Shown piece after piece: positions 673-49,947 of a DNA stretch of 56,798 nucleotides. The notes below the pieces were generated by a model, which had not been told where the DNA came from, ran no database searches, and was given only the letters and a program-made list of their open reading frames with translations. Source of the DNA: Prorocentrum cordatum. Taxonomy: Eukaryota. The DNA lies in NCBI GenBank assembly GCA_963575745.1, contig CAUYUJ010000066.1, forward strand, positions 62,001 to 118,798. Direction: 5' to 3'. Within the stretch, counting starts at the first letter, position 1; each line of letters starts with the position of its first letter. The position numbers were made by a program, and so were the translations under genes.

Positions 673-3504
673 ATAAGAAGTTCAATGATTTGGGGCCTTT
701 TGCCTCCGCGGGCCCCAGGTGCCCCTAGAGAGGGCCCCAAGAGGGCTCCAAGAGAGCCCCCCAGAGCACCAAGACAGCCTCAAGAGGGCTCATGACGACT
801 CCAAGGTGGTCCAAGACAGACCCTACGAACCCTCCACGTGGCCCCACTAAATCCCTGAGGCGCCCCTGAGAGGCCCCGGATAGCCCCCAGAGTCATTCCG
901 AATTCTCCCGGTATCATATGTCCAGGATCGTATTAAAACAAAGACTTGTCTTACATGACTGTGGTGTTCCTGCCTCTGCGGGCTCCCAAGGGCCTCTTGG
1001 CCTCGTGGTCGCCCCAAGGGGGGCCGCCAAAGAGCCCTGGGAGGGCTCCGACACTCCCCATAAGGACCCCCAGGGGCCCTATCGCAGGAAGATTAGCCCC
1101 GACCTCGCCCTCTCGACCTCCTCTCCCCCTCCCCCGCCCACCACTTTCAGAGGTCTTTGTCAGTCTCTTGAGTTCGCAGGGCCCCGAGAGGCCCAGCAGC
1201 GGGGGACCAGCGGGAGCCAGGCACCAAGATTACCCCACGATGCCTCGAGATGACCCGAAGGTGGCCCAAGACAGTGTAAAGCCAGTTGGAAGACCCAACC
1301 TTGCTTGTTGTATCGTATTAACGATAATGCCAAAGATAGGAAATGGCCGCGTGAGCGGCGAGAGAACATCTCAAGAGTAAGATTGCGGGCCGATGTCAGA
1401 TAGCGGGCCGCGGGGTATAGAACCCAGGGGGGTAGCCTACCCTAGGCCCTACCCAAGGGCCTAGGGTAGCCTAGGGTAGGCCCTACCCAAGGCCCTAGGG
1501 TAGTCTACCCTAGGCCCTACCCAAGGCCCTAGGGTGGCCTAGGGTAGGCCCTACCCAAGGCCCTAGGGTAGACCTAGGGTAGGCCTTACCCAATGACCTA
1601 AGGTAGACCTAAGCATATAGAGCCCGGAGGGTAGGCCTACCCTAGGCCTACCCCTAGGCCTACCCCCTAGGCCTACCCTAGGCCTACCCCCTGCCCTACC
1701 CCCTAGGCCTGCCCTAGGCCTACCCCGTAGGCCTACCCCCTAGGTCTACCCTAGGCCTACCCCCTAGGCCTACCCCCTAGGCCTACCCTAGGCCTACCCC
1801 CTAGGCCTACCCCCTAGCCCTACCCTAGGCCTACCCCTAAGCCTACCCACCCCTAAGCCTACCCCCTAGGCCTACCCCTATAGGCCTGCCCGCCCGCCGG
1901 ATCGAGCAGACGGACCAGAACGGATCGGGTAGGATCGGGCAGGCATTAAAGTGTGGAGCATGTTCGCACTAGCACGCGTGAACCCTAACGGGCGGGTCGG
2001 GTCGGGTCGGGCGGACCCTAACGGGCGGGCCGGGTCGGGCGGGCGGGACATTAAAGTATGGTGCGTGTACACTTGACACGCGTGAACCATAAGAAGTTCA
2101 ATGATTTGGGGCCTTTTGCCTCCGCGGGCCCCAGGTGCCCCTAGAGAGGGCCCCAAGAGGGCTCCAAGAGAGCCCCCCAGAGCACCAAGACAGCCTCAAG
2201 AGGGCTCATGACGACTCCAAGGTGGTCCAAGACAGACCCTACGAACCCTCCACGTGGCCCCACTAAATCCCTGAGGCGCCCCTGAGAGGCCCCGGATAGC
2301 CCCCAGAGTCATTCCGAATTCTCCCGGTATCATATGTCCAGGATCGTATTAAAACAAAGACTTGTCTTACATGACTGTGGTGTTCCTGCCTCTGCGGGCT
2401 CCCAAGGGCCTCTTGGCCTCGTGGTCGCCCCAAGGGGGGCCGCCAAAGAGCCCTGGGAGGGCTCCGACACTCCCCATAAGGACCCCCAGGGGCCCTATCG
2501 CAGGAAGATTAGCCCCGACCTCGCCCTCTCGACCTCCTCTCCCCCTCCCCCGCCCACCACTTTCAGAGGTCTTTGTCAGTCTCTTGAGTTCGCAGGGCCC
2601 CGAGAGGCCCAGCAGCGGGGGACCAGCGGGAGCCAGGCACCAAGATTACCCCACGATGCCTCGAGATGACCCGAAGGTGGCCCAAGACAGTGTAAAGCCA
2701 GTTGGAAGACCCAACCTTGCTTGTTGTATCGTATTAACGATAATGCCAAAGATAGGAAATGGCCGCGTGAGCGGCGAGAGAACATCTCAAGAGTAAGATT
2801 GCGGGCCGATGTCAGATAGCGGGCCGCGGGGTATAGAACCCAGGGGGGTAGCCTACCCTAGGCCCTACCCAAGGGCCTAGGGTAGCCTAGGGTAGGCCCT
2901 ACCCAAGGCCCTAGGGTAGTCTACCCTAGGCCCTACCCAAGGCCCTAGGGTGGCCTAGGGTAGGCCCTACCCAAGGCCCTAGGGTAGACCTAGGGTAGGC
3001 CTTACCCAATGACCTAAGGTAGACCTAAGCATATAGAGCCCGGAGGGTAGGCCTACCCTAGGCTTACCCCTAGGCCTACCCCCTAGGCCTACCCTAGGCC
3101 TACCCCCTACCCTACCCCCTAGGCCTGCCCTAGGCCTACCCCGTAGGCCTACCCCCTAGGTCTACCCTAGGCCTACCCCCTAGGCCTACCCCCTAGGCCT
3201 ACCCTAGGCCTACCCCCTAGGCCTACCCCCTAGCCCTACCCTAGGCCTACCCCTAAGCCTACCCACCCCTAAGCCTACCCCCTAGGCCTACCCCTATAGG
3301 CCTGCCCGCCCGCCGGATCGAGCAGACGGACCAGAACGGATCGGGTAGGATCGGGCAGGCATTAAAGTGTGGAGCATGTTCGCACTAGCACGCGTGAGCC
3401 CTAACGGGCGGGTCGGGTCGGGTCGGGCGGACCCTAACGGGCGGGCCGGGTCGGGCGGGCGGGACATTAAAGTATGGTGCGTGTACACTTGACACGCGTG
3501 AACC
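673..3504. repeat. Near-perfect tandem duplication, 1416-bp unit (about 673-2088 and 2089-3504)
   Basis: Identical ORF translations offset by 1416 (918/2334, 946/2362, 1160/2576). Confidence 0.9.
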
Positions 3505-4768
3505 CTCACGGGCGGGGGTCGGGTCGGGCGGGCGACCCTATAAACGGGCGGGTCGGTGGTGCGTGGGCGGGACTTTGAAGTACGCGTGGTGCGTGGACAC
3601 TTGAACACGGTCGGGCGGGTCGTAAACCCTCACACGGGTGTCGGTCGGTCGGGTCGGGTCGGGCGGGCGGACCCTAACGGGCGGGTTCGCGGGGGCGGGT
3701 CGGGCGGAGGGCATATTAAAGGTATGGTGCGTGTACACTTGACACGCGTGAACCCTCATGGGCGGGTCGGGGTCGGGCGGGCGGACCCTAACGGGTCGGG
3801 TCGGGTCGGGCGGACCCTACGGGCGGGACATTAAAGTATGTGCACACGTGACACGGTGAACCCTAACGGGCGGGTCGGGTCGGGTCGGGCGGGCGGACCC
3901 TAACGGGCGAGTCGGGTCGGGTCGGGCGGACCCTAACGGGCGGGTCGGGTCGGGCGGGCGGGACATTAAAGTATGGTGCGTGTACACTTGACACGCGTGA
4001 ACCCTCACGGGCGGGTCGGGTCGGGTCGGGCGGGCGGACCCTAACGGGCGGGTCGGGTCGGGCGGGCCCTAACGGGCGGGTCGGGTCGGGTCGGGCGGAC
4101 CCTAACGGGCGGGTCGGGTCGGGCGGGCGGGACATTCAAGTATGGTGCGTGTGCACTTGACACGCGTGAACCCTAACGGGCGGGTAGGCCTCGGGTAGGC
4201 CTAGGGGGTAGGCCTAGGGGGTAGGCCTATGGGGTAGGCCTAGGGGGGAGGCCTAGGGTAGGCCTAGGGGGTAGGCCTAGGGGTAGGCCTAGGGTAGGCC
4301 TAGGGGGTAGGCCTAGGGGTAGGCCTAGGGTAGGCGTAGGGGGTAAGCCTAGGGGTAGGCCTAGGGTAGGCCCAGGGGGTAGGCCTAGGGGTAAGCCTAG
4401 GGTAGGCCTAGGGGGTAGGCCTAGGGGTAGGCCTAGGGTAGGCCTAGGGGGTAGGCCTAGGGGGTAGGCCTAGGGTAGGCCTAGGGGGTAGGCCTATGGG
4501 TAGGCCTAGGGTAGGCCTACCCCCCGGGTTCTATATGGGCCGCGGTGCGACCCGGTCAAATTGGCGGCTGGTCGCTTGGGCCCAAGCGGCCGCGGACGAA
4601 CGCTCGATACCTCTCGCCTTTGCCCTTCCTCCTTCAGAGTCGGGGTGGGGAGAAGACGAAGCGTGAGTCCGCTACCGGCCTTACTCAGCCAAACAGCTCT
4701 ATTCCAAAGGAAAGGCAGCAGCCAGCGGGCTCAACCTTAGCAGGTTACCCCGAAGGTGGCCCAAGACA
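1254..4768. mobile_element. Short non-LTR-type insertion flanked by a 20-bp target-site duplication, later interrupted and partly duplicated
   Basis: CCCGAAGGTGGCCCAAGACA at 1254-1273 (also 2670-2689) and 4749-4768; the paralogous empty site at about 8302-8321 has a single copy. Confidence 0.7.
2830..4537. mobile_element. Non-autonomous foldback TIR element, hAT-like (8-bp TSD)
   Basis: TSD GGCCGCGG at 2822-2829 and 4538-4545; termini GGTATAGAACCC and GGGTTCTATATG; inner terminus CATATAGAGCCCGG at 3030; inverted arms of (GGCCTACCCCTA)n and (TAGGGGTAGGCC)n; core of GGGCGGGTCGGGTC repeats. Confidence 0.75.
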
Positions 4769-7504: not shown

Positions 7505-8200
7505 GAGGACCTGTGTAAACGCAAGGACTATCAACGATGCTGGAATTAAGCCTCCCTCCAAACTCCCTCTTTATATGACCCTACAGCGGTTCATGTTCAT
7601 TGAGGGAACTGCCTCGTTGGAAGGCAACCGTTTGAAGACCTTGAAGCATGCCAACATATTGTTCTCGGGATTTCCACGCCACGGATGAACCTAACTGCTG
7701 CGTCAGGAATCGAGCGAGGACGCCATTTTTGGGACTTCAGCACCACGAGTGAACATAACTGCTGCACCCGCATGATTCTGAATTCTTCCAAAACGCAATT
7801 TCTGGTACGTTGATCATGGGAATCCGTGAAACTCTCGCAAAATTTGAAAACGAATGTGCGCGGCGCTAACGCGAGAACCACATTTTGAAAACTACCCGCC
7901 CTCAATCCGTCAAACTCTTGCATATTTCGAAACGAATGTGCGCGGCGCTAAAGCGAGAACCACATTTTGAAAACCACCCGCCCTCAATCCGTCAAATTCT
8001 TGCAAAATTTGAAAACGAATGTGCGCGGCGCTAAGACGAGAGCCACATTTTGAAAACCGCCCGCCCTCAATATGTGAAGCTGTTGCCACTTTAAGCTTCA
8101 GAAGCGTAGATGGTGAGGAAATCTCAGGCGAAACGCCCGGACCGCCCTAAAAACTGGCCTCGGGGTGCGACAGGGAGACATTATTTATAAGGACAAGGAA
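7505..8200 (+). repeat. Dispersed repeat family of about 700 bp with internal AAACGAATGTGCGCGGCGCTAA subrepeats
   Basis: Homologous to tandem copies at about 37245-38480; flanked by (GGA)n. Confidence 0.75.
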
Positions 8201-16445: not shown

Positions 16446-16781
16446 CTCGGGGGCCAGCAGCGAGAAGGCTTCGGGGCGCCCTCCCCAGACTGATGGGCAT
16501 GCTGTCCGCCGCCACCACCAGAAGTTGGAGGGCGGGAAGGGAAGGAGGTGGAGGATGAGGGGGAGGACGAGGACGAGGAGGAGGAAGAGGAAGAGGAAGA
16601 GGAGGAGGAGGAGGAGGAGGAGGAGGAGGAGGAGGAGGAGGAGGAGGAGGAGGAGGAGGAGGAGGAGTTGGAGTTGGAGTTGGAGTTGGAGTTGGAGTTG
16701 GAGGAGGAGGAGGAGGAGGAGGAGGAGGAGGAGGAGGAGGAGGAGGAGGAGGAGGAGGAGGACCCCCTCCTTCGCGTGCAC

Positions 16782-17534: not shown

Positions 17535-17660
17535 TGGTGAGATCTTCTCTCGGGATGCTTGCCGGGAGAGGTGAGCCGAAACGTCGATGGAGCATGCCGC
17601 ATCACGATGTCCAAATACTCTTTCAGCACAGACACTGCACGGGGGCTACGGGTTTATGCC
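17535..17660 (-). repeat. 3' LTR
   Basis: Direct repeat of 23603-23727 (about 16 substitutions plus 1 indel by manual count); ends ...CACCA on minus strand; preceded by purine-rich GAAGGGGGC (17661-17669). Confidence 0.85.
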
Positions 17661-17959
17661 GCCCCCTTCGTGCCGCCTGGCTCCTTTGGCCAGGCGCGGC
17701 TCAAACCCATGCGCAGCAGAGCCCGTTCTCGGCAGCGCAGATGTTGCAGGATCAATTCGACCATTCGGACGTGCCCAGAGTAAGCACTAAGCAGCGCCAC
17801 TGACCGTAGCCCTATTCAAGTCAAAACATGGCGTGGAGGCTGAAGAACTGCAGGCCAAAATGGCCATCGTCGTAGACGTGCCCCCCAGACCTTCGCCTGG
17901 AGGGCACTCGAGAGAGGCGCGTCCGAGATCTCAACATTCATCATGCTCACAGCTCGCAG

Positions 17960-18400
17960 CAACGCTGCCTGGTCTAGGTGCTTAATGCCCAGGTCCGCGG
18001 GATTGGCCTTGCCAGGATCTTGGTGAGCTGGAAGCGGCCGTCGCGAAGGGCCCGCTGGGCCCACGGCGTCGGCTTCTCCAGTTGGCGAACCTCGCCGCAG
18101 CCTCGGCGCTGCATGATGCCGAGGGCCGCGGCCGAATCGCTTCACGCACGAAGGCCCACGTCCCGACCGAAGCCCCGATTCAGGGCCTGCATGCCGATGG
18201 CCCTGCTGGCAGCACGCGCGCAGCCGTAGCACTCCGCTTCGCCTGAGCTCCTGGCGATCGGGATCTGGGTCGTCGAGGCCGTCGCGATCAGGTGCTGGCC
18301 GTGCTTGATCGCGACCGAGCTGGTGCTCCGCCTGGTGATCGGGCAGCCAGCCCAATCCGTGTCTGTGTAGACGTCCCGAAGACGGGCCCCACCTCCACGC
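17960..18400 (-). pseudogene. Copia RNase H
   Basis: VYTDTDWAGCPITRRSTSS...SSGEAECYG...PGKANPADLGIKHL. Confidence 0.9.
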
Positions 18401-18439
18401 AGCGCGCGGTGCTCCCACAAGGAAGCGCCCTGTGCGCTT

Positions 18440-19500
18440 CAGCGCTTCAGGAGTCTGCGATGGCGCTCCGTCGGCGTCTGCATGCCACGGGCGCGCTCCT
18501 TCGCGGCGAACTGCAGCGCCTCGTGGTCGAGCGCGAGATAGCCCAACCTCGTGTGCGCACACCGGTACTCGGCCGCCTCGGCCTCGGGCAGCTCGCGCTC
18601 GACCTCAGGTGTCAGATTCTGGCTCGCGCCAGGCGTGCTCAGTGAAATCGCGGCCGACGTCGTCCCAAGCTGCGCATGGAGGATCTGCGCATGCCTGGGG
18701 CCCGCCTCGCGCTCGATGGTTTCGCCCCCCTTGGCTCCGCCGGTCACGCCAGCGCATGGCCCTGTTGAGGCGCGTGATCTCCTTCAGGTCGGTCGGCGCT
18801 GGCCCGCGCACGCCGCGGTCCTTCGCGATGAACTTCGCACTCAGCATCTCACGGATCGCCTCCGTCAGTCGCGGAGGCCCTCGAGAACGAAGTCGTCGCC
18901 GTGGTGGAAGAAGCCCACCTGCTTGTCCTTATGGTAGTACACGCGCGGAGAGAAGGTCGACTGGTCGCAGACGGCGCCGACGACGGTCTCAGCGGTCGTC
19001 AGCTCGAAGTTCTGGCCGGCATCGCGCGTCCCGTAGAGTGTCATCATCCAGGGCCCGCGCGTGTCCATCTCCTGCGACATCGGGCCCTCCTCGGAGAGCC
19101 CGATGTAGAGCGTCCTCTTGATCTCGCAGTGCGGGTGAGTCGATGTCCAAGAAGCGCAGGGCGCGACCCTCGGCAGGGTCGCTCGACATCGCCATGCTGC
19201 ACACGAGCCGGAGGCACTCCAGCGGTGGCGTCACTGCGAACACTGCGCCGACGTCGCCCCCAGCGATGGTGCTCTGCGCTCTGGTCTCCTGCGCGACGAG
19301 ACGCGGCCAATAGTCAGGCCTGCTGGAGTCACCCTTGTCGATGTCGACCCAGCGCGCGCTGAGAGGCTTGCGGTCGAACTCACGGTGGCAGTCCTCGTCG
19401 CTCGGGTAGGTCCACGCGCCGAGCGGGGCAATGAAGTCCATCTCCGCGCGCCTCGCCGCCTTGACCTTCTCGGCGTCCAGCGGCGCTCCATAAAGCTCGG
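18440..19500 (-). pseudogene. Copia reverse transcriptase (frameshifted)
   Basis: KPLSARWVDIDKGD...RLVAQE...FAVTPPLE...FLDI; TLYGTRDAGQNFE; HGDDFV; LNRAMRW; YLALDHEALQFAAKE. Confidence 0.9.
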
Positions 19501-19619
19501 TATCCAGAATGTCGCGCCAGCGCCCGGTGAAGCCCTTCAGGCTGACCCCCTCGCCGTCCACGTTCGGCCCCGCGCCGAGGGCCGAAAAAGTGAGCGCCTT
19601 CTTGTTCGAGAGGTGCTGG

Positions 19620-20260
19620 CGGAGACCGCGTAGCATGGCGCGAAGGAGCCTCGTTGGGCACCTCCCTGCCGCGCGCGCGTTGTGGCCGACGAAGGTGGGG
19701 CGCTCGCGCTGTGGACCTATCCTGGTGTCGTTCGGGCTGCGCTTGCAAACCTCAACCAACGCCTCCATATTGTTGCTCATCCACCCTGTCGGCTCCTCGG
19801 CGAGCCTGTCTCCGCGAGCGCCCGGGGCCGCGGGGCCGAGCGCGCGCTGGCCCCCTCGCCAGACCGCCGCGCCGGGGAGGGCCATCACGTTCTTCACCAC
19901 GCCCAGGCCCCAGCTGTCGGCGCCCCAGGAGTGCTCGCGCAGGAACGCGCGGCCACTCACGACCTGCAGCGCATGCAACTCCATCGCGAACCTTAGGTGC
20001 TCGTGCCTGGTGGGATAGGCCTGGCGCTGCTTCTTGGAATCCTCGCCCAGGCGCGTCAGCATGGAGAGCGGCGCGCAGCGAGGGCTCCCCGGGAGGAAGT
20101 GCGGCTGGTAGTACCCAACTATAGCTCGCGACATCGGTGCTTTTGGTGGCGGTCGGGCAAATCCCAGCCGCGACCCAGACGTCGAACGAGGCGCCGTGGA
20201 CCAGCCCGAAGAGCGGCGCAAAAGCTGTTCGGGCAGAACACCCACGTCAACCTTGCGCCC
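19620..20260 (-). pseudogene. C5 cytosine DNA methyltransferase-like domain between integrase and RT
   Basis: Reconstructed across frameshifts: VDV.(E)VFCP..F...FGLVHGASFD...GWDL...YQPHFLPGSPRC..LS.L...FLREHSWGADSW...GGQRALG...EEPTGWMSN...AAGRCPTRLLRAMLRGL, the order of C5-MTase motifs I, IV, VI, VIII, X. Confidence 0.6.
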
Positions 20261-20699
20261 GCTGTAGCCGAGCGAAAACAGCGGCGCCTCAATCTCCGCC
20301 TGCATGTCGCCGTCGCCTGGGCCTGGGGGAGCCGGGGCCATGTTCGCGTCAGCGGCTGGCGCGGCCTCCGGCGCAGGCGCCGCCGGAGCCGGCCCGCCGC
20401 TGCCTGGCGAAGTGCCTCCTCCGCTATCCCCGCGCTGTCGCTTCCGATCGCGAGCCTCCTCGAGCCTCGCCTCGTCGCCCTCGAGCGTCGCCTTCTCGAT
20501 CCGAGCGCGGCGCTCGGCTGAGTGAGCCTGCGCCCGGGCGCCGAGGGGGATCGCGGCGCAGCTGCAGCTGCCGGGGGTGGTGCCGTACATCGCGATCTCG
20601 ATGTCCTTCTCGATGTAGGCGGCTAGAGGCCCGGCGCTCGGCCGCGCGCCTCGAGGAGCCCGATCGAGGTGGGAGGTCCGCCCCCTCGGGGGCCGGCAG

Positions 20700-21700
20700 T
20701 GCCGCGTCGGCTGGGCCGACGGGCAGACTGGGGCGCCAGCCGGCGCGACTGGCACTGGCACGCGGATCTCGATGGCCACCAGGACCTCGTCACTCGCCGC
20801 ATTCCCCGGCACGGGCGCCCACGGCTTCCTCCCGAGACCGATCAGCATGTCCTTGTCGCCGCGCTGGTCGATCGGCAGCCGCTCGAGGGCCCGGGCGCGC
20901 AGCGCGACGAACTCCGCGCCGATGTAGACCTCGTCGGTGCGCAGCGTGGGCCCCAGGTGGAGCCGAGAGAGGAACTTGTCCTCAATGCGGGCCTTCCGCT
21001 TGCCCCCTGGGAGGGCGCAGCGCCTTCTCCGAGAAGCTTGCGAGGTCCTTGCCGAAAGCCCGGCCGTGCCCGAGCTCCCGCGCGGTCCGACCGTCGGCGC
21101 CGCGCCGGCCCAAGTTGGTCGACGTCGCCGCGTGCTCGACCATCCGCGGGGTTGCCGGGTGGTCGACGCCGACGCTCGCGCCGCGGAGGTCGTCGACCTG
21201 CGCCCTCGCGGCCCAGACTTTGGCCTTCACCTCGCGCGCGGCGTGTTCGGTGAAGCCGTTGCCCTGAGAGTCGCCAGCCGCGCTCTCCTCGGGGGCCGTC
21301 TCGACGCCGCGGCCCTCCTTGAGCTTGGCTGCGACGGCGACGAGAGAAGCGTCGCCATCCGCGCGGGAGACGAAGCGCTTGTGGCCAGCCAGCGCTAGCC
21401 TCTTCGACTGCGACTTCCGGCCAAGGATGCTGCGCCCCCTTGGCCGTCGCCGTGGGCGCGTGGAACCAGCGCTGCTTGGAGCCCTTGCCAGTCGGCGTCG
21501 TCGCCCCGACCTCGCTCGCGAGAATTAGCTGTAGTCGATGCCAACCGCCGCGAGAGCAGCCCCTTGGCGGTCCGTGGTGTGGCGGCCCGCTGATGGGCCC
21601 CTGCCGAGGACGCGCTCCCAACGCCGTGCCCTGTCGGGCTTGCGCAGCACCTCGCGCGCGGCTCGCTCTGCCGCCGTCGGGGCCGCGGGCCCCCTCGCCG
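20700..21700 (-). pseudogene. Copia integrase (degenerate HHCC plus DDE core)
   Basis: PTAAERAA(H>R)EVL(H>R)KP.RA(W>R)(C>R)WE(C>R)VLGRG; VGIDY; RADGDASL; SQGNGFTEHAAREVKAKV. Confidence 0.8.
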
Positions 21701-21838
21701 GTCGCGCCGGGGGGCCCTCGGCGACCTGGCCGGCCGCGCCCTCGGGAGGCTCTGGGCCCGCCGCCTCCGCGGGCAGACCTCCGGCGCGGGTCGACGTGCG
21801 CGTCGATCTCGTATAGACCTTGTTCCCGCGGCAGAACT

Positions 21839-22216
21839 TCACGACGTCTCCGCTGGTCTCGCGGCGCGCGTTGCTGACATCTCGCCCGCCCTCGGAGTCG
21901 CGACGACGAGTCGGTGGCCCGAGTCGGCCATCGCCGCGACGCTCAGCAACGGCTTGCTGACGTCCGCCACCCTGAACTCGGCGGCGCGCGCCTGGGAAGC
22001 CCCAGGCATCTTTCCCGCGAAGAGCTTCTCGCCCTCGTCAGCCGCGTAGTGGCCAGAGGCGATCGTGTAGGCGATCGCCCCACCAGTACTGTCGCGCACT
22101 GGGTAGTCCGCGCGCCAGCCGCGCGGTAGCGCAGAGGCCGCCGCGCGCGAGTCGACGCCCGCGCGCGAGATGCCGTTGAGCTCGACGTCCTCCGCATCCG
22201 CGTTGCCGTGGACCAT
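21839..22216 (-). pseudogene. Copia aspartic protease
   Basis: GVDSRAAASALP...YTIASG...DEGEK...FRVADVSKPLLSVAAMADSGH. Confidence 0.8.
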
Positions 22217-22329
22217 GCGCGCGCCCAGGGCCGCGCCACTCGCGGAGTCGACGCCGCCCGCCTACGCAGGCCCTGGGTCGATCGAGGTGAAGGAGTGGAG
22301 GTGCGCGAGCGGGTGTGTCGCGATTGAGG

Positions 22330-23420
22330 TAGAGCGGTGCAATCTACCGAGACGCTCCACTCGTCGAAGACGATGCTGGACCTATCCTCGTGGTCGCAGC
22401 TGTCGAGATCGAGGCGGCTGACAAGGGAGCCGACGGGGCCGGCCCGGTCGCGCCAAGGCCCGCTCCGAGCCCATAGTGCTGGTTCAGGCGCGACAGAATC
22501 TGCCCCATGCTCGCCAGTGCGCCCCTGTTCTTGCTAGGGCACTCGCGCCGGGTGTGGCCTCGGCCGCCGCGGCCCCAGCAGGGTTCTGCCCCTGGCCCTT
22601 GACTCCGCTGGTCTTGCTCTTGCCTTCGGACTTGGTCTTCCCCTTGCCGTCGCTCCTGCCCTTGCCTTTGCCTTTGCCGTCGCTCTTGGCGTTGCCCTTG
22701 CCATCGCCCCTGCCCTTGCCCTCGCCGCCCGTGGCGAAGGCGCTCAGGTCCATCGGCTCCGGGGCCGGGGCGACTGCACTCAAGGCCCTGCGGATGTCGG
22801 TAACCTCCTGGCGGAAGTCCTGCAACTCCACGAACCGGGTCGCGCTGAGCAGGAGGTGTTACCGCAGGGGCCCTTCCTCGAGCTGGTGCAGCACAGTGCC
22901 TATCCTCATCTAAGCCGATGAGGGTATCACCGCTCCGCTGCTCATAACGGATCAGTTGTCGCTCGAACAGAGCTAGCCTGTCCTCGACATCGCCAGCGAA
23001 GGTGAAGTCCAGAAGGTTGAGCAGCTGGCCGACGATCCGAAACCGAGCGTTCGGCTCATAGTACTCAAATAGCTTGCGCCACGCCTGGAAGCCCTCATTC
23101 TCGCCGCTAGTGACGACGGTGGTCAAGAGATGCTGGCGGCGTAGGAGGAGGATGTAATACAGCTGCTGCGAGGCCCTTTCGAGCGAATCTCCAGCTAGGT
23201 CGTCTAGGAGCACCGAGATCGCGTCGGCACTCTCAGCCCGACGCGTCCCTATGACCAAGTCTGAATTCAACAGCGCAGCGCGCTCTGAAAATGACCATCC
23301 AGTCGTTCCGCTTGTGCGCCTCCCCCGTGAACGCGTCAGGCTTGCCGAGCGTGCGCGTGTCCACCAGGCGGGCTTGAGCGCCGCGAAGAGCTTCAGATGT
23401 TTGCCGAGAGCGGACCACAG
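22330..23420 (-). pseudogene. Copia gag with degenerate CCHC zinc knuckle
   Basis: VDTRTLGKPDAFTGE..(W)NDW..FRA; QLYYIL; EGFQAWRKL; PEPMDLSA, KGKGKG-rich tract, CWG(C>R)GGRGHTRREC. Confidence 0.8.
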
Positions 23421-23590
23421 GCGCTATAACTTCAACAACTTACGCAGAGCCCGAGCTATCCGCCGCCAGCCGTTGCTTGACACATTGATTCGCTCCTCGT
23501 TCTCGGGCACACTTCGCACGTGCGCGGCGCCCGCGCTCGCGGGGCCGACAGCCGCGGAACACCCGCCAGACGACGACGGCAGGGGCTGCG

Positions 23591-23602
23591 GCTCCGCTAC
23601 CA
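23591..23602 (-). other. Primer binding site
   Basis: TGGTAGCGGAGC directly after the 5' LTR terminal CA, resembling tRNA-Met-type PBS TGGTATCAGAGC. Confidence 0.75.
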
Positions 23603-23727
23603 TGGTGAAATCTTTTCTCGGGGTGCTTGCCTGGAGAGGTTCGCCGAAACGTCGATGGAACATGCCGCATCATGATATCCAAACATTCTCTCAGCACAAT
23701 CACTGCAGGGGGCTATGGGTTTATGCA
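23603..23727 (-). repeat. 5' LTR
   Basis: TG...CA termini on minus strand (TGCATAAACCC...TTTCACCA). Confidence 0.85.
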
Positions 23728-26845: not shown

Positions 26846-29035
26846 TACACCGGACTCACTTCTATAGCGCTCACTTCTATAGTGCTCACTTTGAAATTGT
26901 GGTCCGGAAGGGGCCGCACATGCAGGCACATGCCGCACAGTCGCATGCACATGCCCATGCAAATATACAAAAGCCTCAACAGCATTGCCGCACATGCGCG
27001 CACATGCCACACCGTCCGACGCACAGTCGAATGCACGGTCAAGCAAAACTCTGAAAGCATAGACGCACATGCCCGCACATGCCGCAGAGATGTCGCAGGC
27101 GATAGTGGCCTGACCACCTGAGCTCGGGGCATTTCGCAACCCAGAGTTCCGAGGATGTCTCAGGCAAGCGTGGCCGGATCACCATGGGGCAGGGCATCTT
27201 GGAAACCAGAGTGGCGAGGATGTCGCTGGTCAAGGTGACCAGACGACCATGGGGCAGGACACCTCCGAGGTCTGAGTTGTGAGGATGTCTCAAGCGAAAG
27301 TGGCCTGACCACCATGGGGCAGGAGATCTCTGAGGTCAGAGTTGCGAGGATGTCTCTGGGGAGAGTGGTCTGACCACCTCAGCCCAGGGCATCTCGGAGC
27401 CCAGAGTTGCGAGGATGTCTCAGGCAGGACTGGCCTGACCACCTGCTCAGGGCATCTCAGAACCCAGAGTTGCGAGGGTCTCAGGCGAAAAAGGCCGAGA
27501 CACTATGGAGCAGGGCATCATTGAGGTCAGAGTTGCGAGGATGTCTCAGGCAAAAGTGGCCTGAACAGCTCAACTCAGGGCATCTCGGGCGAGGATGTCT
27601 AAAGCGAAAGTGGTCTAGCCACCTCAACTCAGGGCGTCTCGGAACCCAGAGTTCCGAGGATGTCTCAGGCGAAAGGGGCCGAGACACTATCGAGCAGGGC
27701 ATCATTGAGATCAGGGTTGCGAGGATGTCTCAGGCGACAGTGGCTGACCACCTCAGCTCGGGGCATATCGGAATCGAGACTTGCGAGGATGTCTCAGGCG
27801 ACCGTGGCCTGACCAGCATGGGGCAGGAGATCTCTGAGGTCAGAGTTGCGAGGATGTCTCATGCGAAAGTGGTCTAACCACCTCAGCTCAGGGCGTCTCG
27901 AAACCCAGAGTCCCGAGGATGTCTCAAGCGAAAGTGGCCGGGCCACCATGGGGCAGGGCATCTCCGAGACCAGAGTTGCGAGGATGTCTCAGGCGAAGGT
28001 GGCCAGATCACTTCATGTCAAAGCACGTCGGCCTCCAAATTGCCGACGACGTCTCACGCGGAACTGGCCGGACGCGAACGCGCCGGCGTCCGGAGACGAA
28101 CGCCGGCCCCGGCATTCTTGCACGTCCCGCACATGCACTGCACAGGTACGCACAGTATTCGCACAGGCCGAGCTCGCCGGTGGCCGAGCCAGGCCAGCGA
28201 TTCCGAGATTCCCTGAGCTCGGGCCGTCAAGCCACTTTCGCCTGAGACAGCCTCGCAACTCTCACCTCCTCCTCCTCCTCCTCCTCCTCCTCCTCCTCCT
28301 CCTCCTCCTTCTCCTCTGGCCGAGCCGAACAGGCAGGCTGGCCAGTGGCCGGGGGCGCCCGCCTCCTCCCCCCTCCCTCCTCCCGCCCCCCTCCACCTCC
28401 CCCCCCCCATCCCTGCTTCTCCGCGAGCTGAGAAGGCGCGCGGGAGAGTATTTTATTAGGCGGGCGCGCCACCGCCAGCTCACGAACTGGGGGAAAAACC
28501 GCCCCCGCCAGCAGCGGGCGAGTCTAAACGCACAACAAACTCTTTCAGGAAACCCTGGCACGCCCCAGGTTAGCTCTGCGAAGGCCAGGAGGCATTGGAG
28601 GCACAGGGGTCCCAGACAGCTCCTAGGGCATGAGCGTGCATGTGCATTGGGATGTGCACGCACGTGCGCCCGCGCGCTTCACCGCATGTGCGTGCATGTG
28701 CGGGCCCGCGCGGCCTCCCGAAGAGATGTTGCACAGGCATGTGCGTGCATGTGCCGATGACAGATCTGCGATTCTCGAACACCTCCCGCATGTGCAGGCA
28801 TGTGCGCGCATGTGCGTCGGACTGTGCGTGCATGTGCGTATGATGGATACATCAAAATAAAGCGCACATGCCCCCGCACATGCCCGGGCACGACGTGCAC
28901 AGCAGGAAGTCCATCCAAGAAGGACCGCACAGGCCTGGCACATGACTGGCACATGCCGCGCACATGCGCGCACATGACAGCGCAAAAACGGCCGCACATA
29001 CACCCACCCAGGGGTATAGATGTGAGTGCGGTGTA
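26846..29035. mobile_element. Non-autonomous Tc1/mariner-like TIR element (TA-flanked) with GCACATGC subterminal arrays and a nested 60-bp satellite
   Basis: TA|CACCGGACTCACTTCTATA ... TATAGATGTGAGTGCGGTG|TA. Confidence 0.6.
27085..28020 (+). repeat. Satellite of about 60 bp (AGAGTTGCGAGGATGTCTCAGGCGAAAGTGGCCTGACCACC...)
   Basis: About 15 degenerate tandem units; inverted copies at about 28210-28263 and 29300-29760. Confidence 0.8.
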
Positions 29036-30239: not shown

Positions 30240-30790
30240 GGCAACGACACCGACGCCGACGACGACAGCGACAACGACGACGACGCCGACGACGACTACG
30301 ACGACCCCGACGACGACGACGACGACGACGCCGACCACGACGCCGACGACGATGCCGACGACGACGATGACGACGCCGACGACGCAAACGACGACGACGC
30401 CGACGCCGACGACGACAACGCAAACGACGACGACGACTACAACGAAAACGACGAAGACGACGACGACGAGGGAGGAGGGAGGACGGCGAAGACTCGAACG
30501 ACGAAGAAACAGGGAGGACGGCGACGCCGACGACGACAACGACGAGGGAGGAGAGAAGACAATGACGACGACGACGACGGCGACGAAATAGGAGGGACGA
30601 CGACGAGGCGCCGACGACGGACGACGATGACGACGAGGGAGGAGGAAGGACGATCACGGCGACAACGACGACGGAAACGACGACGACGCCAAAGACGACG
30701 ACGACGAGGGAAGACAAAGGACGACGACCGCGACGACGACGACGACGACGAAGGAGGAGGGAGGACGGCGACAACGACGACGACGACGCA
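30240..30790. repeat. Degenerate (CGA)n microsatellite
   Basis: Visible trinucleotide run; similar tract at 34100-34490. Confidence 0.9.
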
Positions 30791-37244: not shown

Positions 37245-38480
37245 CCGTTGGAAGACAACCGTTTGAAGACCATGATGCGTATCAAAACATCCTTTCCGGG
37301 ATTCCAACGCCACGGATCAACCTGACTGATGCGTCATGGCCACCCTGAATCGTGCCAGAACGCCATTCCTGGGACTTCAACACCGCGAATCAACGTAAAT
37401 TTGCGCGCTCATAACCCCGAATCCTTCCAAAACCACTTCTGGTACGCTGATCATGCGAATCCGTGGGGCTCTTGCAAATTTCAACGAATGTGCGCGGCTC
37501 TGGGGCGAGATCCACATTTTGAAAAGGAACCGCCCTCAATCCGTGAACCTCTTGCAAATTTTAAAACAAATGTGCGCGGCACTAAAGAGAGGGCCACATG
37601 TTGAAATAGAATCGCCCTCAGTCCGTCAAGCTCTTGCAAATATTGTCAAACGAATGTGCGCGGCGCTAAGGCGAGGCACGCATTTTGAAAACGACCGGCC
37701 CTCCATATGTGAAACAGTTGCCACTTCTTGGCTTCAGGGTCATTCGCGGTGAGGAAGTCTCAGGCGAAACGCCCAGACCGCCCAAAAAAACTGCCCTCGG
37801 GGAGCGACAGGGAGAATTTACTTATAAGGACAACGGAATGGAAGAGGAGCAGGAGGAGGAGAAGGAGGACCAGTGTAAACCCAAGAGCCATCAGCGATGT
37901 TGGAATCCCCCCCCCTCCAGGCTCCCTTTTCACAGGCCCCTACAAGGGTTCATTTCCACTGAAGGAATTGCCCCGTTGGAAAACAACCGTTTGAAGACCA
38001 TGACGCGTATCAAAACATCCTTCCCGGGATTCCAACGCCACGGATCAACCTGACTGATGCGTCATGACGACCCTGAATCGTGCCAGAACGCCAGTCCTGG
38101 GACTTCAACACCGCGAATCCATGTAAATTTTGCGCGCTCATAACCCTGAATCCTTCCAAAACCATTTCTGGTACGCTGATCATGCGAATCCGTGGGGCTC
38201 TTGCAAATTTCAACGAATGTGCGCGGCGTTAAGGCGAGAACCACATGTTGAAAAAGAGCCGCCCTGAATCCGTGAAACTCTTACATTTGTTCAAAAGAAT
38301 GCGCGAGGTGCTAAAGCGAGAGCCACATGTAAAACAAACCGCTCTCAATCCGTGAAGCTCTTGCCACTTTTTAGCTTCAGGGTCATAAGTGCTGAGGAAG
38401 TCTCAGGCGAAACGCCCAGACCGCCCTAAAAACTTGCCTCGGGGTGCGACAGGGAGAAGTTATTTTGAAGGACAAAAGAG
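37245..38480 (+). repeat. About two tandem copies of a roughly 730-bp repeat family
   Basis: CCGTTGGAAGACAACCGTTTGAAGACCATG at 37245 and a near-copy at about 37973; homolog at 7505-8200. Confidence 0.8.
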
Positions 38481-41079: not shown

Positions 41080-44000
41080 CTACCGCAGACGGAGCCAGAA
41101 GCAGGCGTCGTCTGTGGGGAAGAGGGGGCGGGGCTCACCCCGCCACTCGCCCGAAAGGGGATCTTTACCCGCCTCTAGGCGCTTCAAATACGTGGCGTCT
41201 TTGCTGGATGCAAAACCCTCACACTGGCCCCAAAGGCGGGAACGAGGGGCCGACGGCTGGGCCCTGGCACCGCAGCGGTGGCAGAATGCAAGGGTCTCGC
41301 CAGCAAGACTAAGATGGTGTCCTCTAGCACTACTGGGCCCTACAGGGCCCTGAGCGGGGAGAGGGACCTCAGGGCGGGTGGCATCACGCGCAACCCAGGA
41401 AGGCGCACCAGGACCTCCAGAGGTCCGAGGGCGCTTGCATGGCGGAGGCCCCACAAGCCCGCCAGAGCCCACAGGCCCGACACCGCCCGACACAGAGGCC
41501 GAAGCCGCCGTCCGAGGCGCCTTCGGACGCGGGCCCTCCAGGGGCCCACCCGCCCTGCGGTCTCTCACCGTCCTGGCAGGAGCGGGGGGGGGTGGCGGAG
41601 GGGGGGGGGGACCTGCGCGGCCAGGGAGCGTGCCTCTTTGGCGCGCCGACACGCCTCCCCCAACTCAGCATCCAACTGATCCTCACCCCCACCATCCACC
41701 TGGAACCTCACCCGCTTAAAAGCCAAGGACCGCTCAAGACCCTCGGTCGCGATGGGCGGCGAACTCTCTGGCCCAGCTGAGGCTTCGACGCTTCGAAGCT
41801 CCAAGGAAGGGCTAGCCTCAGAGGGGGGGGCCGAGACGCTCCCGCAGGGCCCACCAGGGCCCCTCGGCCCAGCAAGGGCCGCAGCCAAGGAAGGCTCAGG
41901 CGAGACACCCTCGAGGCCCCAGAGGGCCGCCGCCTCCGCGACCCTACAAAGATTCTTCCTAAGTCTCGCAGCACCTTTCGGCGTTACCGCGTAAGCGGGG
42001 CATCGATCACAACTATACTTCTTGCCCCTCAGCCTCACTCGATGCAGGAGCTGAAGAGGGCAGGCCTGTCCGCCTGCGGGCGAGCCCGTGCCGCGTCGCC
42101 CCCCTCCAGCGCCGCTGCCTGCAGCGCCAGCCGCGGCCAGCTGCGCCCAGCGGCCGCGCAGCTCCATGTCGCGTCTCCGTGGGACGTCCACGCGGTCGGG
42201 TGTCACGGTGCCGTCGAAAATCATCCTGGACGAGTTAGCAATCCAGGTCGCGACCGATCTGAGCGTACAGAGCGAGTCGGTGTAGCTCTTGACAATAGCT
42301 TGGGGAAGGTCGTGCAGCTGGCGACCCCTCTTAGCCGCTTGGTCTGCCAAATCGTTGCAGCGACGATGCCAGGAGTCCTCACTGGAGTGGCCCTTGACGT
42401 ACGAAAGCCGAATCGGACTCTCCAGGTCTCCAGAAACGGAAAAACCTCCATGATCCTCCAAGTGGTGAAATAGGCGACGCCAAAGATCCACATTCTCACG
42501 CCTCGGGTTTAGACACCAGCGCCTGCCACGCGCCAGCCCCTCGAGCAAAGGCATGTAGTCCGTGAAGATATGGAGCGGGGCCACACCGACGGATAGCACC
42601 TGAATCATTGCGTGCAACTCACCACGAGCGGACGTCTGGCGATGGCCAGGCAGCGGCCCAAAGACCGCTCCGTAGTAGCAAGCATCACCAACAACCACGA
42701 AACCCCATCCCGCACGGTCTGCAGCGTCCCAGTGGAGCAGCTTCCTGCACGACCCGTCAGTGAACACCGAGCCCGTGACGACAAAATGTTCATGGGCCCG
42801 AGCTCCACGATCGTAGCGCCAAACACCAGAGTCATTCCTGGGCGGCAAGGCAGGAAGAAAGGAGTTGGGGTAAAGCCCACGCGAATAGAGCAAGTCACCA
42901 GGTGGCGCCCTCTTCGCCGCTTCCAGGGTGGCCCCGGACGCCATCAAACACATGGCATTGCCAGTGCCTGTGGTGGGCGGTACCTTCCACACCAGGACAG
43001 TTCCTGCATTCAGGGCAGTGAGCGTAAGCATGACGGTGCAAGCGCTTCTGCGTGAAATGACCACCCACTACCGCAGTACGCAACGCAGCCCGAGCCAGCG
43101 GATCCAACACCCAACGCTTGGCCTTGGGGCCAGGGCATAGCAAAGCACGTATGGGACTCAACCAAGCACCAGCAGGGTCCTTGTGAGACGGACCATCAAG
43201 CTGAGGCATCACCTCAGGTCTGGCGGCCCATTGGTACCAGCATGCGATCTCATAGTCCTTTAGCGCCAGCCACTTGACCCCTGACGGGGCCACCTCACGC
43301 AAGTCCATAGTAACACCACCACGAGTACGGACTCGAAACGCTGAGGAGACTGTCCAGCCCAAGAAAGACATAGACCGCGCAAACGCACCAGCTGGGCCAG
43401 CCACCAGCTTCCAGCTCTCCTGCCAGTCAACCGAGGCCGCTTTCCAGTATTGAGAGCGCCAAGCCGTCTGCAGCGTAAAATGATCAACATCCCCCGACTG
43501 AATCAACAAAGCCCAGTTGAAAACAAGTCCAACAATGGCCAAGGTCGCAGGTTGAGACTCAAAGTCCCCTTCCAACCTCGATGCAATCCAGTGCGACGCC
43601 CCAGAGGGAATGGCATGCCAGCCCAGCTTCGCCAGGGAAGTCACGCGCTTGATCAGGTGCGGCCCAGCGCCCAGAATGCCCAAGCCGTAGGTAATAGCGG
43701 GGCCGACAGCTGCTTTGGGAACCTGCCTGAACTTCGCTCCAAGGTGGCTCAGCCTCTTGAAGTGCCTTGCCCGCTTTAACGCGCATCCGACACGACCCCG
43801 AAGCACTCGATCACGAACACTCTTGCCAGCGGCCACCTCAAGACCCAGGACCTGCAACCAGGACCTGGCCTGAAAACCGTACCAGCGCATAAAACGAGCC
43901 ACTGCGGGGGCTACGGCATCATCGGACGCGGTGAGGAACGCCTTTGACTTCGCCACGGGAAGGCCGAGGTCCTGCAGGGTGTCACAGAGCAAAGCAACCG

Positions 44001-46560
44001 CATCAGTGGCGATCCTGCACACATCCGCCCGTCTGGCCATCACTTGCAGAGTCAAGTCGCCAGCGAAGATGTCCAACGAGAAAGAAAAACCCACCTGAGC
44101 AGGGATGCCGAGACCGACCGTGCTGACGAAATCATCCATTGACGCAAGCATCAGTAGCTGCACAAAGGCCATGGCGAACTTGCATCCTGGAAGAACGCCC
44201 TGAGACACCGTAACGGCATACGACGTAGCCTGCTGCCGCACGAGCCTGTGAGGCGCACGATACATGCTCATAACACAAGAAAGCAACTGACGCGGAAATC
44301 CGTGCTTGGCCGCCGCCGAGACTAGCCTCCGCCAACAAATGCGGTCGAAGCACTTCTCGACATCAACAATGGCCGTCGCGACTCCTTGCTCCACCGCCAG
44401 TGCAGCTTCAGCCCTCACTAGGACCCGCGTGGCCACATCCAGAGTGGTCTTGCCTGAAGCCAGGGCGAAAAAAACGGCCTGTCGTGCTCCAGCAGCCAGA
44501 CCCGCAGCTGCCTGCTGCGAACCTGCGACCACACGCGGTAAGCCGCCTGCAAAAGAGCGATGGGCCGCCATCCACCTTTGGGCTTCGCCAAGAGCACAAT
44601 GTGGACGGCGGCCAGCTGCGTAGGCCAACGCTCCCAATGCTCCGCCAGCCAGAGCACATAGATGAGCAGTGAGAGGGTCTCGTCCGCGAGCAGGCTGAAG
44701 GAGCGAGGCGCCAGACGGTCAGCACCTTGCCCCGTGTGCCACTTGAAGGACTTTGCCGCCGCGCGCAGTTGGCCAACCTTGGGCACAGGCAACGAAGCGC
44801 GCGGCAAGCGTCGAATCTCCTCAAAGAGCTGCGCCGTGTCGGGGAAATCCGCAAGGTGCCTCACCACAAACACGTCGGGTCCAGCAGCAGCTCCATGCAC
44901 CTGATCACGGGTGGGAATCGCAGAGGCAGCGCGTGCATTCCAAATGCGAGACCAACCGTCCATTTGATCATCCGCAACATCCTGAGCCAACGTAGATGGC
45001 CTCGCATGCCGAACCACTTGGGAATGCCGAACACCCGACGGCTTCGTGAAGCTGAAGAGCGGCTTGATGCGAGACTCACGGCAGTTGGCAGCCCACCGTG
45101 CAAACTCTCTCCTGCCCTCGGCCATCGCCGCCTGTTCCAGGTCTCCAGCAAAAGAGCGAAGCCAACCAATGACAAAATCGACCGACTCCATCAGTAGGCG
45201 CTGAATGCCAGCGAGATCACCTCCCACGGTACCAGTAGTGGGCAAACCAACGTGGTCTCCCGACTGCAACAGGGTCTCACGATCCAGCAGCACCTGGAAA
45301 TCGTCGGGGGACGCCTCCACGACCTCCCGCGCCATCGGCAAGATGCCCCGCAGCGTGGCCACCACGTGCTGGCGCTCGGGCGATCGAAAAGACCTTTCGG
45401 CGCCCAGAGAGACGAGTCTGTCTAAGCGCCGAAGTAAAGCCAGGGGCTGCAGCCTAGCACGCAGCGCATCGTCAGCAGCCTGAGCCAGGCGTCGCGCACG
45501 CCGAGCGTCAGGAGGGGCGGCAGGCCTCGCAGCTGCTGGCGCTCCTCCAGCTTGGCGCCAACTGTATGCCACCTTGCCAGCACGACCGCAGTAGCGAGGA
45601 GCGTCGACCGCAGGAACACCATAACGCACCAGTAACTCCTCCTCCACGACGTTCATAAACTCAGCGTACAGGTGGTCCAGCCGCGCCTGAGCCTGAACAG
45701 GGGTCGCCTCACCTCCCAGTACAACATCCTCCTCGATGAGATCGCGAGTACGATCCACCAGCACAGGCGTGACATCCTCGGTCGGGGCCTCCCTCGGAAA
45801 GGCCTTCGGCGCCCGCAGGACGAGGAACTTGACAGCCTTGGCCCGCGCGTCGAGGGACGTCACCATCGGGAAATGCGGCGATGCAGGCCAGCCGTCCACA
45901 GGCACAGGCTGCGCCAGCGAGCTCGCAATGGACAAGCTGGCCAGCCAGTAATCGATTGTCGTAGGAACCCTGGGCGCTGCGGCACGTGCCCACAGGAAGT
46001 TGCCCTGCAAGAGCAGGGGGCCTAGCGACCACTGCAGCAGGGATGAAGTCCAAGAAACCATACTCGCCAATATGCTTCGGATCGCAGTTGAAATCACCCG
46101 CCATCAGAAACGGCCTGTTCCAACCTCGCAGCGTTGTAGCGATGTCATAGAGCCTCATCACATTCACGTCGCTCCATCGCCCAACTTCAAAGTAGCATGA
46201 CAATAGCACAAGACCACCTCTGATACCAAAAACCGCATGACACGCCACACAGAAACTCGGAATCAGGTCAAAACCTTTCAGTCCAGGCAGCTCCGTCACA
46301 CTGATGTGCCGCCGAATGAAAATACCCACTCCAGCAGAAGGCCGCCCTGACTCCAGACGTCGGCACGAGGAAATAATAGCATGCCACCCCGATCGCGCTG
46401 CCCAGCCTTCAGCACGCCGACGGTCGTCACCATCGATGCGCAGCTCCTGAGCCGCCACAACCTGGATGCCAGGATCGCAATGGGCCAGAAACTCACTGCA
46501 CGACGCCCAGGAAGAACCGCTGTAGGCGACGAAAGAGGCTTGCACACGGGCGCGGCCTCG
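41080..46560 (-). pseudogene. LINE ORF2: APE endonuclease, reverse transcriptase, RNase H, C-terminal Zn modules (frameshifted)
   Basis: VVAAQELR, SAGVGIF, MAGDFN, TIDYW, SPH; KPKGGWRPIALL, DVEKCFDRI, GVLPGC, IFAGDL; VFTDGS, QTSARGELHA, IFTDY, YVKGH, NDLADQAAKRG; H..CDRC and H..FCHRCG..C. Confidence 0.9.
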
Positions 46561-46573
46561 ACGCCCACGGCAT

Positions 46574-47815: not shown

Positions 47816-48139
47816 GGGGGGAAGGAGGGTGAGGAGAGGAAGGGGATGAAGGGGGGGGGGTGAGGAGAGGAGGGGATGAAGGGGGAAGGAGGGTGAGGAG
47901 AGGAAGGCGTGAAGGGGGGGTGGGGGGATCAGGCGCCCACCCCCTCTCCCTCGGGCTCGCCCCCGTCGCGGAGCCCTTCCAGCTGCCCGCGGGCTCGCGG
48001 TCGTGGTGCAGTCGGGGCCACTTGTGCGCTCTGACTCCCAGACGCTGGGGATAGATCTGGGGGTTGGAGGGTTTCTCCAGAGGGCTTAGGCGACCCGTCC
48101 TCCTCATCCTCCTCTCCTGCTCCTCCTCCTCCTCCTCCT

Positions 48140-49255
<1,116 letters not shown>

Positions 49256-49868: not shown

Positions 49869-49915
49869 AGAGATCTTCGCTCGAGCGGGGGGGAGAGGAG
49901 GACGAGGAGGAGGAG

Positions 49916-49947
<32 letters not shown>

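Follow-up and report, generated by a model that had tools for sequence, protein, structure and literature searches.

A C5-cytosine-methyltransferase-like domain beside the reverse transcriptase of copia-type retrotransposons, with a decayed copy in Prorocentrum cordatum

The capture of DNA methyltransferases (DNMTs) by retrotransposons is known from few cases. Three of them, SymbioLINE-Dnmt and SymbioDIRS-Dnmt3 of Symbiodinium and KnitGypsy-Dnmt3 of the charophyte Klebsormidium, carry canonical DNMTs (de Mendoza et al. 2018, PMC5890265). According to the accessible sections of that paper, de novo CG methylation by these enzymes is demonstrated, the enzymes are under purifying selection, and two of the three share an open reading frame (ORF) with the reverse transcriptase (RT). 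The same sections state that the Copia superfamily, which comprises the most abundant elements of Symbiodinium, 'lacks any DNMT domain'. A 2025 paper that cites the 2018 work mentions, in its accessible part, DNMT3 members in LTR Copia and DIRS elements; these are canonical DNMT3 enzymes.

Here, we focus on a domain of a different kind, called domain X, which lies between the integrase and the RT of a copia element in a 56,798-nt stretch of Prorocentrum cordatum DNA (the window). A sequence-only reading of the window had noticed the domain and compared it to C5 DNA methyltransferases (C5-MTases). It had also pointed to the DNMT capture by Symbiodinium and charophyte elements, and its citation agrees with the accessible text of the 2018 paper (PMC5890265). 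A full-text search of the literature, including papers on dinoflagellate and diatom copia elements and covering article texts outside their supplementary files, found no description of domain X in the text available to it.

A decayed copia element and its intact relatives

The window contains a decayed Ty1/copia-type LTR element at about 17535-23726 on the minus strand, and domain X lies inside it at 19604-20260 (Table 1). The parts of the element follow each other in the order gag, protease, integrase, CCHC knuckle, low-complexity linker, domain X, RT and RNase H. An intact P. cordatum polyprotein, P0015 (1827 aa), aligns by tblastn to 17888-23430 through its residues 47-1827, with 54-66% identity over most of its length, and the alignment jumps among all three frames. 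From the order of this alignment and from its frame switching we conclude that the element is Ty1/copia in layout and a pseudogene. Of the putative LTRs only a conserved core was detected, a direct repeat of 124-125 nt with 87% identity that brackets the coding region. No second copy of the element was found inside the window.

A single frame of 745 codons (18989-21226, minus strand) runs from the C-terminus of the integrase through domain X to the start of the RT. The integrase segment is frameshifted relative to the segment that follows it. Its assignment comes from inspection of the sequences of the intact relatives; a Pfam rve match is found neither in the window ORFs nor in the relatives searched. 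A Pfam search detects the copia-type RT (PF07727, RVT_2) in three of the relatives, P0004, P0018 and P0019, and the window ORFs have no match at E<=1 except one at chance level. A C-x2-C...H-x3-4-C motif, as in zinc knuckles of the CCHC type, is present no more than 330 aa upstream of domain X in 105 of 121 polyproteins, at a median distance of 154 aa.

Table 1. Parts of the copia element in the window, listed from its 5' to its 3' end
Feature	Position	Strand	Basis and remarks
5' LTR-like direct repeat	23603..23726	-	124-125 nt, 87% identity to 17535-17659, spacing 6068; conserved core only
gag remnant	22868..23430	-	P0015 residues 47-215, 53-62% identity, three frames (tblastn); ORF 22344-23423
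Aspartic protease region	21902..22321	-	P0015 residues 364-502, 66% identity; ORF 21839-22261; without Pfam match
Integrase (N-terminal zinc finger and DDE core)	21000..21899	-	P0015 residues 503-815, 57.5% identity, frame -1
CCHC-type zinc knuckle remnant	20495..20587 (about)	-	Counted on the translation; last Cys replaced
Low-complexity Ala/Pro/Gly/acidic linker	20261..20494	-	Translation; least conserved segment among relatives
C5-cytosine-methyltransferase-like domain (domain X), decayed	19604..20260	-	Family HMM, relatives, AlphaFold2 models of relatives
Copia-type reverse transcriptase	18865..19500	-	Frameshift near 19140; P0015 residues up to 1404 and from 1408 in different frames
RNase H and C-terminal end of Pol	17888..18604	-	P0015 residues 1408-1827, 61-77% identity, two frames; ORF 17816-18604
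3' LTR-like direct repeat	17535..17659	-	Pairs with 23603-23726

The extra domain is present where the sequence-only reading placed it, between integrase and RT. Within the 745-codon frame, the main frame at 19604-20128 corresponds to positions 66-242 of the family profile with an E-value of 2.5e-33; the profile HMM (A3) was made from 33 family members, with the window and its close kin left out. The N-terminal third of the domain (about 20122-20260) is broken and split over three frames. Outside the main frame there are weak matches to profile positions 28-44 (E 2.5) and 50-68 (E 0.021), one in each of the other frames, and one of the two pieces ends in a stop. The motif-I-like stretch that had been read, in brackets, across the frameshift is therefore correct. 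The motif-IV-like pentapeptide, including its Pro-Cys, is retained at 20075-20089, exactly as had been read.

At 23 of the 28 positions that are highly conserved in the family, the in-frame part of the window copy can be set against the intact relative P0004, and seven of these 23 residues are replaced. Two replacements are around motif VI (the His before the Glu, and the Pro after the His that follows the Glu). The others lie further on: the Cys of the motif VII/VIII region, the motif VIII-like Lys, a later Cys, a His, and the motif X-like Tyr. With a frameshifted first third and seven conserved residues lost, the window copy cannot function. It is a dead copy, a pseudogene. The observed/expected ratio of CpG is 1.13 in this copy, compared with 0.87 and 1.03 in the flanks; thus, this single old copy bears no CpG-decay trace of self-methylation. 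The lack of CpG depletion in one old copy is weak evidence either way.

Intact relatives are abundant. The window segment finds 17 longer proteins, 15 of them P. cordatum polyproteins and two of them distant metagenome polyproteins; 14 of the 15 share 46-56% identity with it over 99-100% of the query. When 1.84 billion representatives clustered at 50% identity are searched with a profile made from three intact relatives, 11,558 clusters score at E<=1e-3; of these, 5,980 reach E<=1e-10 and 1,148 reach E<=1e-30. RVT_2 follows downstream of domain X (E<=0.001) in 22 of 32 long representatives. In a second search, PF07727 is on record for 103 of the best 120 longer proteins, and the sources of these best 120 are nearly all ENA or JGI assemblies. 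The sequence-only reading had named absence or lack of conservation in sister copies as a refutation, and neither is seen: the segment is present and strongly conserved both in the P. cordatum polyproteins and in thousands of relatives. Neither Pfam nor NCBIfam has a curated model for domain X, and NCBIfam gave no relevant match among 36 members.

Pairwise protein identity of domain X, compared with that of the RT, the integrase and the linker, serves as a proxy of constraint. Among 87 polyproteins the median is 40.1% in domain X and 40.4% in a 300-residue stretch of the RT; it is 32.3% in a window of the integrase and 17.7% in the linker. By this measure on the protein sequences, domain X is constrained as tightly as the RT. 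A separate metagenome scan with one protein gave three loci at 29-42% identity, which is too distant for dN/dS; in one of them (L010) the match sits inside an open frame of 640 codons or more, and in another (L011) no frame that contains it reaches 250 codons.

Predicted fold and kinship to C5-methyltransferases

The fold of domain X was predicted by AlphaFold2 (AF2) without templates for two independent targets, the metagenome representative P0048 and the domain of the P. cordatum relative P0004. The models have pLDDT values of 90.9 and 90.0 and pTM values of 0.88 and 0.86, respectively, and the order of strands and helices is identical in both. These results bear on whether domain X is a domain at all. 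The DNA is 68% GC with many overlapping open frames on both strands, and the window ORFs lack a Pfam match, so that domain X might be just a linker between integrase and RT or a chance open frame in GC-rich DNA. Against this stand the match to the family HMM, the thousands of relatives and the confidence of the AF2 models, and the chance that there is no real domain is negligible. We consider the linker or chance-frame explanation refuted by the family search, the two AF2 models and the HMM match.

Structure searches with the two models point to C5-MTases. Against the PDB, Foldseek finds 19 matches at E<=1e-3 for the first model (best E-value 1.3e-4) and 76 for the second (best E-value 1.8e-5). 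Among the matches listed for the two models, all are C5-MTases: DNMT1, MET1, DNMT3A/B, DIM2, Dnmt2, M.HaeIII and the Cp-933R MTase. The TM-scores to the solved DNMTs are modest (TMq 0.33-0.52). In BFVD, viral cytosine MTases are on top, and proteins of 210-218 aa match end to end with TM 0.59-0.67 (E 5.6e-8 and 8.4e-5). In the ESM Atlas, none of the 30 nearest clusters carries a name; the nearest named cluster is viral (score 0.87) with PF00145 in 35% of its members, which is a lead only.

VIA-align of the first model against 48,161 representative chains places DNMT3B on top (Z 10.7, rmsd 5.9, 188 residues aligned). The Cp-933R methyltransferase, DNMT3A, MET1 and M.HhaI come next (Z 10.3-10.2), and the top five rows have 181-197 residues aligned. 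Rossmann folds from other families, a MAT2B chain and then short-chain dehydrogenases (SDRs; Z 9.8-9.6 versus 10.7), follow within one Z unit; hence the Z-scores of this first search alone indicate a Rossmann-type fold and not a DNMT specifically. For the second model, the best 13 rows are all C5-MTase-family chains (Z 10.7-8.7, 166-208 aligned), and the first dehydrogenase appears at 8.6. Both models align to residues 10-327 of M.HhaI with only 194-196 aligned positions. As the alignment spans both ends of M.HhaI, the models cover both halves of the catalytic domain and skip the recognition domain.

In sequence, the kinship is marginal. When family profiles are compared with the PDB, DNMT1 chains are the top nine of 12 matches in one case (E 0.15-0.21) and all seven matches in the other (E 0.31-1.0), and nothing scores below E 0.15. 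In the alignment to DNMT1, the motif IV Pro-Cys, the motif VI Glu and the region of motif VIII all fall in register. Among the Pfam families, PF00145 is matched by more members than any other, still below its threshold: three of 33 match at E<=1, with a best E-value of 0.0065. No member reaches the PF00145 gathering threshold, and neither the window ORFs nor three full relatives give a PF00145 match. With hhalign, the probability is 0.9% against E. coli Dcm alone and 5% (P 0.008) against a profile that combines Dcm with six phage enzymes and leaves out two further phage loci (L008 and L009); neither value is significant, and both comparisons align only 14-15 columns around the Pro-Cys. Global and low-threshold hhalign runs gave nothing reliable outside motif IV. 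Because of this marginal kinship, domain X is treated here as a C5-MTase-like fold of a new family and not as a member of PF00145.

The non-significant hhalign values, together with SDR folds that score less than one Z unit behind the DNMTs for the first model in VIA-align, would also suit a Rossmann-type domain unrelated to C5-MTases, for example of dehydrogenase-like or nucleotide-binding origin, in which DNMT-like motifs arose by convergence. Several results make such an origin very improbable. C5-MTases make up the Foldseek matches listed for both models, and viral cytosine MTases lead in BFVD. The second VIA search aligns 166-208 residues to its 13 best chains, all from the C5-MTase family, compared with about 150-165 for SDRs. 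DNMT1 provides the best PDB sequence matches, in register at motifs IV, VI and VIII. Finally, the dinucleotide-binding motif Gly-x-Gly-x-x-Gly is absent from the conservation profile of domain X.

On the basis of the predicted models, domain X is very probably related to C5-MTases at the level of the fold. The sequence-only reading had named the fold in advance as the point on which its claim would stand or fall, and C5-MTases were returned first in the structure searches; its claim of a C5 DNA-methyltransferase-like domain in a copia element is thus supported at the level of fold and architecture. Domain X is best described as a stripped-down relative of the C5-MTase catalytic domain, carried in the Pol of a large copia clade, a description whose well-supported part is the kinship of the predicted fold.

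Conserved residues and candidate activity

Domain X has about 230 residues and, in the models, the Rossmann-type core of C5-MTases, with its motifs in the order I, IV, VI, VIII, X. The motif assignments of the sequence-only reading (I without glycines, Pro-Cys of IV, Glu of VI, VIII-like and X-like) fit the DNMT1 alignment (E 0.15-1) and the conservation profile. The motif IV Pro-Cys of domain X lines up with those of DNMT1 and Dcm. In motif VI, the Glu is aligned to the Glu of DNMT1, a His precedes it, and His-Pro occupies the position of Asn-Val. In place of motif I, an aromatic residue and Ser-Pro-Pro-Arg follow strand 1, with no glycine; the equivalence is suggested by position in the AF2 models. 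To our knowledge, every known Rossmann-fold SAM methyltransferase keeps at least one motif I glycine. The Gly-Asn of motif X is absent. The large target-recognition domain is absent as well, and about 35-45 residues, including a conserved Cys and a conserved His, lie between the motif VIII-like and X-like parts.

Of 287 aligned domains, 242 are near-full, and in these 28 positions reach a conservation of at least 90%. Near-invariant are the Pro and the Cys of motif IV (each in 239 of 242), the Glu of motif VI (241 of 242) and the Asp with which strand 2 ends (239 of 242). In Rossmann methyltransferases, the position at the end of strand 2 is where the ribose of the cofactor is bound. Also at least 90% conserved are the Glu that starts strand 1, the Arg of the Ser-Pro-Pro-Arg loop and the Trp just after the strand-2 Asp. 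Further conserved features are Gly-Ser-Pro-x-Cys, His-Glu-His-Pro, Lys-x-Thr with a downstream Asn, two more Cys, a His, and Tyr-Pro in the region of the last helix. Conservation of this kind is typically seen where a ligand pocket is combined with an active site.

The same residues can be weighed in two ways. Domain X could be a pseudo-enzyme, that is, a C5-MTase-derived fold without catalysis that works as a nucleic-acid-binding or protein-binding module of Pol; for example, it might hold the template or the cDNA, or recruit a host methyltransferase as DNMT3L does for DNMT3A. The replacement of the glycine-rich SAM loop and a motif X without Gly-Asn are in line with this, as are the lack of a large target-recognition domain in a domain of about 230 aa that aligns to both ends of M.HhaI, and the presence of DNMT3L among the structural matches (VIA-align, Z 7.8). 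A binding module, however, needs no near-invariant Pro-Cys, Glu and strand-2 Asp together with about 25 further conserved pocket residues, and domain X is as conserved as the RT. We therefore regard a pseudo-enzyme as unlikely, and lean towards the view that domain X of the intact relatives is both derived from a C5-MTase and catalytically competent.

A catalytically competent domain X could work as follows. In intact elements it would be made as part of Pol, directly before the RT, and since it is made beside the RT it may be packaged together with the template. It would act on a pyrimidine, most likely a cytosine, of the new cDNA of the element or of its RNA, by covalent attack of the Cys at C6. 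That the Cys, the Glu and the strand-2 Asp are kept speaks for covalent catalysis on a pyrimidine and for a nucleotide-type cofactor. A textbook SAM methyltransferase is disfavoured, since domain X lacks both the glycine loop and the recognition domain and has altered motifs VI and X. The methyl group might nevertheless come from SAM held in an atypical pocket, and the cDNA would then be marked like the heavily methylated DNA of the host. Because the SAM loop is non-canonical, methylation of the element's own cDNA is put forward as a hypothesis, and SAM-dependent C5 methylation from an atypical pocket is a tentative proposal that we hold to be possible. That the scaffold carries out a different C5-type chemistry, or uses a different cofactor, seems somewhat unlikely.

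A bolder reading, also on the unlikely side, is that domain X is an active nucleic-acid-modifying enzyme that represents a new catalytic class in the C5-methyltransferase superfamily and marks or chemically alters the cDNA or RNA of its element during reverse transcription. Such a class would keep the covalent pyrimidine chemistry of the Cys and the Glu, and would combine it with a minimal recognition module and with a cofactor pocket rebuilt from the Ser-Pro-Pro-Arg loop, the His-Glu-His-Pro motif and the extra conserved His and Cys. The carriers would be the copia elements of marine protists, in more than 10,000 sequence clusters, and in heavily base-modified genomes a new copy could pass as host-like DNA.

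Comparison with known methyltransferases and retrotransposons

The C5-MTases of PF00145 (DNMT1/MET1, DNMT3A/B, DIM2, Dnmt2, M.HhaI, M.HaeIII) are the best match in five structure searches and appear to have their catalytic fold in common with domain X. Both have their motifs in the same order and share the motif IV Pro-Cys, the motif VI Glu and an acidic residue where strand 2 ends. In contrast, where PF00145 enzymes have Phe-x-Gly-x-Gly, Glu-Asn-Val and the Gly-Asn of motif X, domain X has Ser-Pro-Pro-Arg, His-Glu-His-Pro and no counterpart, respectively. M.HhaI has about 330 aa with a large recognition domain, whereas domain X has about 230 aa without one and is part of a retrotransposon polyprotein. 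Domain X also lies below every curated sequence threshold.

In size, domain X resembles small viral C5-MTase-like proteins, which are likewise catalytic cores without a large recognition domain. Three of these match it end to end: BFVD entry A0A0A0RJX0 (210 aa; TMq/TMt 0.61/0.67), a putative cytosine DNA methyltransferase of Tetraselmis virus 1 (218 aa; 0.59/0.62) and a putative DNA methylase of Lactococcus phage P087 (212 aa; 0.47/0.51). Sequence identity to these proteins is just 15-18%. A tblastn search of 50,697 phage records found no phage relatives of domain X at E<=1, and a scan of viral contigs gave ten pattern matches, none of which was confirmed as a relative.

DNMT3L offers a comparison of another kind. 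It has the DNMT fold without a working SAM site, and its catalytic Cys and Glu have been lost, whereas domain X keeps both almost invariantly.

What domain X would mean depends on its activity. If it is active, LTR elements that modify their own cDNA would be widespread among marine protists, and this would have a bearing on the unusual methylomes of dinoflagellates; a C5-MTase-type enzyme would also be working with no canonical glycine loop. An inactive domain X would be a large natural example of a DNMT-derived pseudo-enzyme. It deserves a profile model either way, as the polyproteins that carry it are now labelled just reverse transcriptase or even RNA-directed RNA polymerase. A domain of predicted DNMT fold appears to be a standard part of a very large copia clade, conserved to the level of the RT and overlooked by family-based annotation.

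The closest parallels are the retrotransposons of de Mendoza et al. 2018. As described in the accessible sections of that paper, they too have a cytosine-methyltransferase-type domain fixed in the coding region, and their hosts include dinoflagellates. Their DNMTs are detectable by Pfam, have conserved key residues and reside in LINE, DIRS and Gypsy elements, whereas domain X resides in Copia, is far more divergent and has a putative activity. Domain X would thus be a new and highly divergent case of a DNMT-type domain captured by retrotransposons, very large in scale and in a superfamily where such domains were thought to be absent.

A zinc knuckle upstream of the methyltransferase-like domain

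A feature of the polyproteins that carry the methyltransferase-like domain is a CCHC-type zinc knuckle (C-x2-C...H-x3-4-C), which lies C-terminal to the integrase and upstream of the domain. It is present in 105 of the 121 polyproteins checked up to 330 aa upstream, and in those carrying it the distance to the domain has a median of 154 aa. The knuckle and the domain may constitute a single module. The copia element of the window retains a remnant of the knuckle (see table). Some P. cordatum homologues, P0011 and P0012, are labelled 'RNA-directed RNA polymerase' at source; they are actually copia polyproteins with RVT_2, and the label probably stems from a misnaming carried over from database to database.

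Features of the window outside the methyltransferase-like domain
Feature	Window position	Strand	Remarks
CCHC-type zinc knuckle remnant, copia element	20495-20587	-	final Cys missing
Non-LTR (LINE)-type retroelement	41565-47622	-	overlapping long ORFs, weak Pfam matches
(AGGAGG)n array	16543-16762		
(CGA)n array	30251-30788		
(TCA)n array	48142-49255		377 copies
(GAG)n array	49895-50284		
34-bp + 13-bp tandem repeat block	1430-1891		first occurrence
34-bp + 13-bp tandem repeat block	2846-3307		second occurrence
G-rich arrays after repeat blocks	3399-4519		unit includes CCCTAA-like words
82-bp-period array	7821-8071		
82-bp-period array	37468-37703		
65-bp-unit tandem array	27089-28071		~14 copies, 70% matches

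Tandem repeats

On either strand, the long tri- and hexanucleotide arrays create extended open frames of low complexity. Among the longer units, the 65-bp array shows higher-order periodicity at 130 and 259 bp, and the two 34-bp/13-bp blocks are spaced 1416 bp apart with equal scores. Because the two 82-bp-period arrays have similar units and lie ~30 kb apart, it is suggested that they belong either to a transposable element or to a dispersed satellite.

A second retroelement

The ORFs of the LINE-type element match Exo_endo_phos (E 0.0011), RVT_1 (E 2.2e-5), and RNase_H (E 7.3e-9), all weakly; the upstream ORF (46574-48085) had no match in the Pfam search. This domain set is identical to that of ORF2 of SymbioLINE, the DNMT-carrying LINE elements of Symbiodinium described by de Mendoza et al. 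2018 (PMC5890265).
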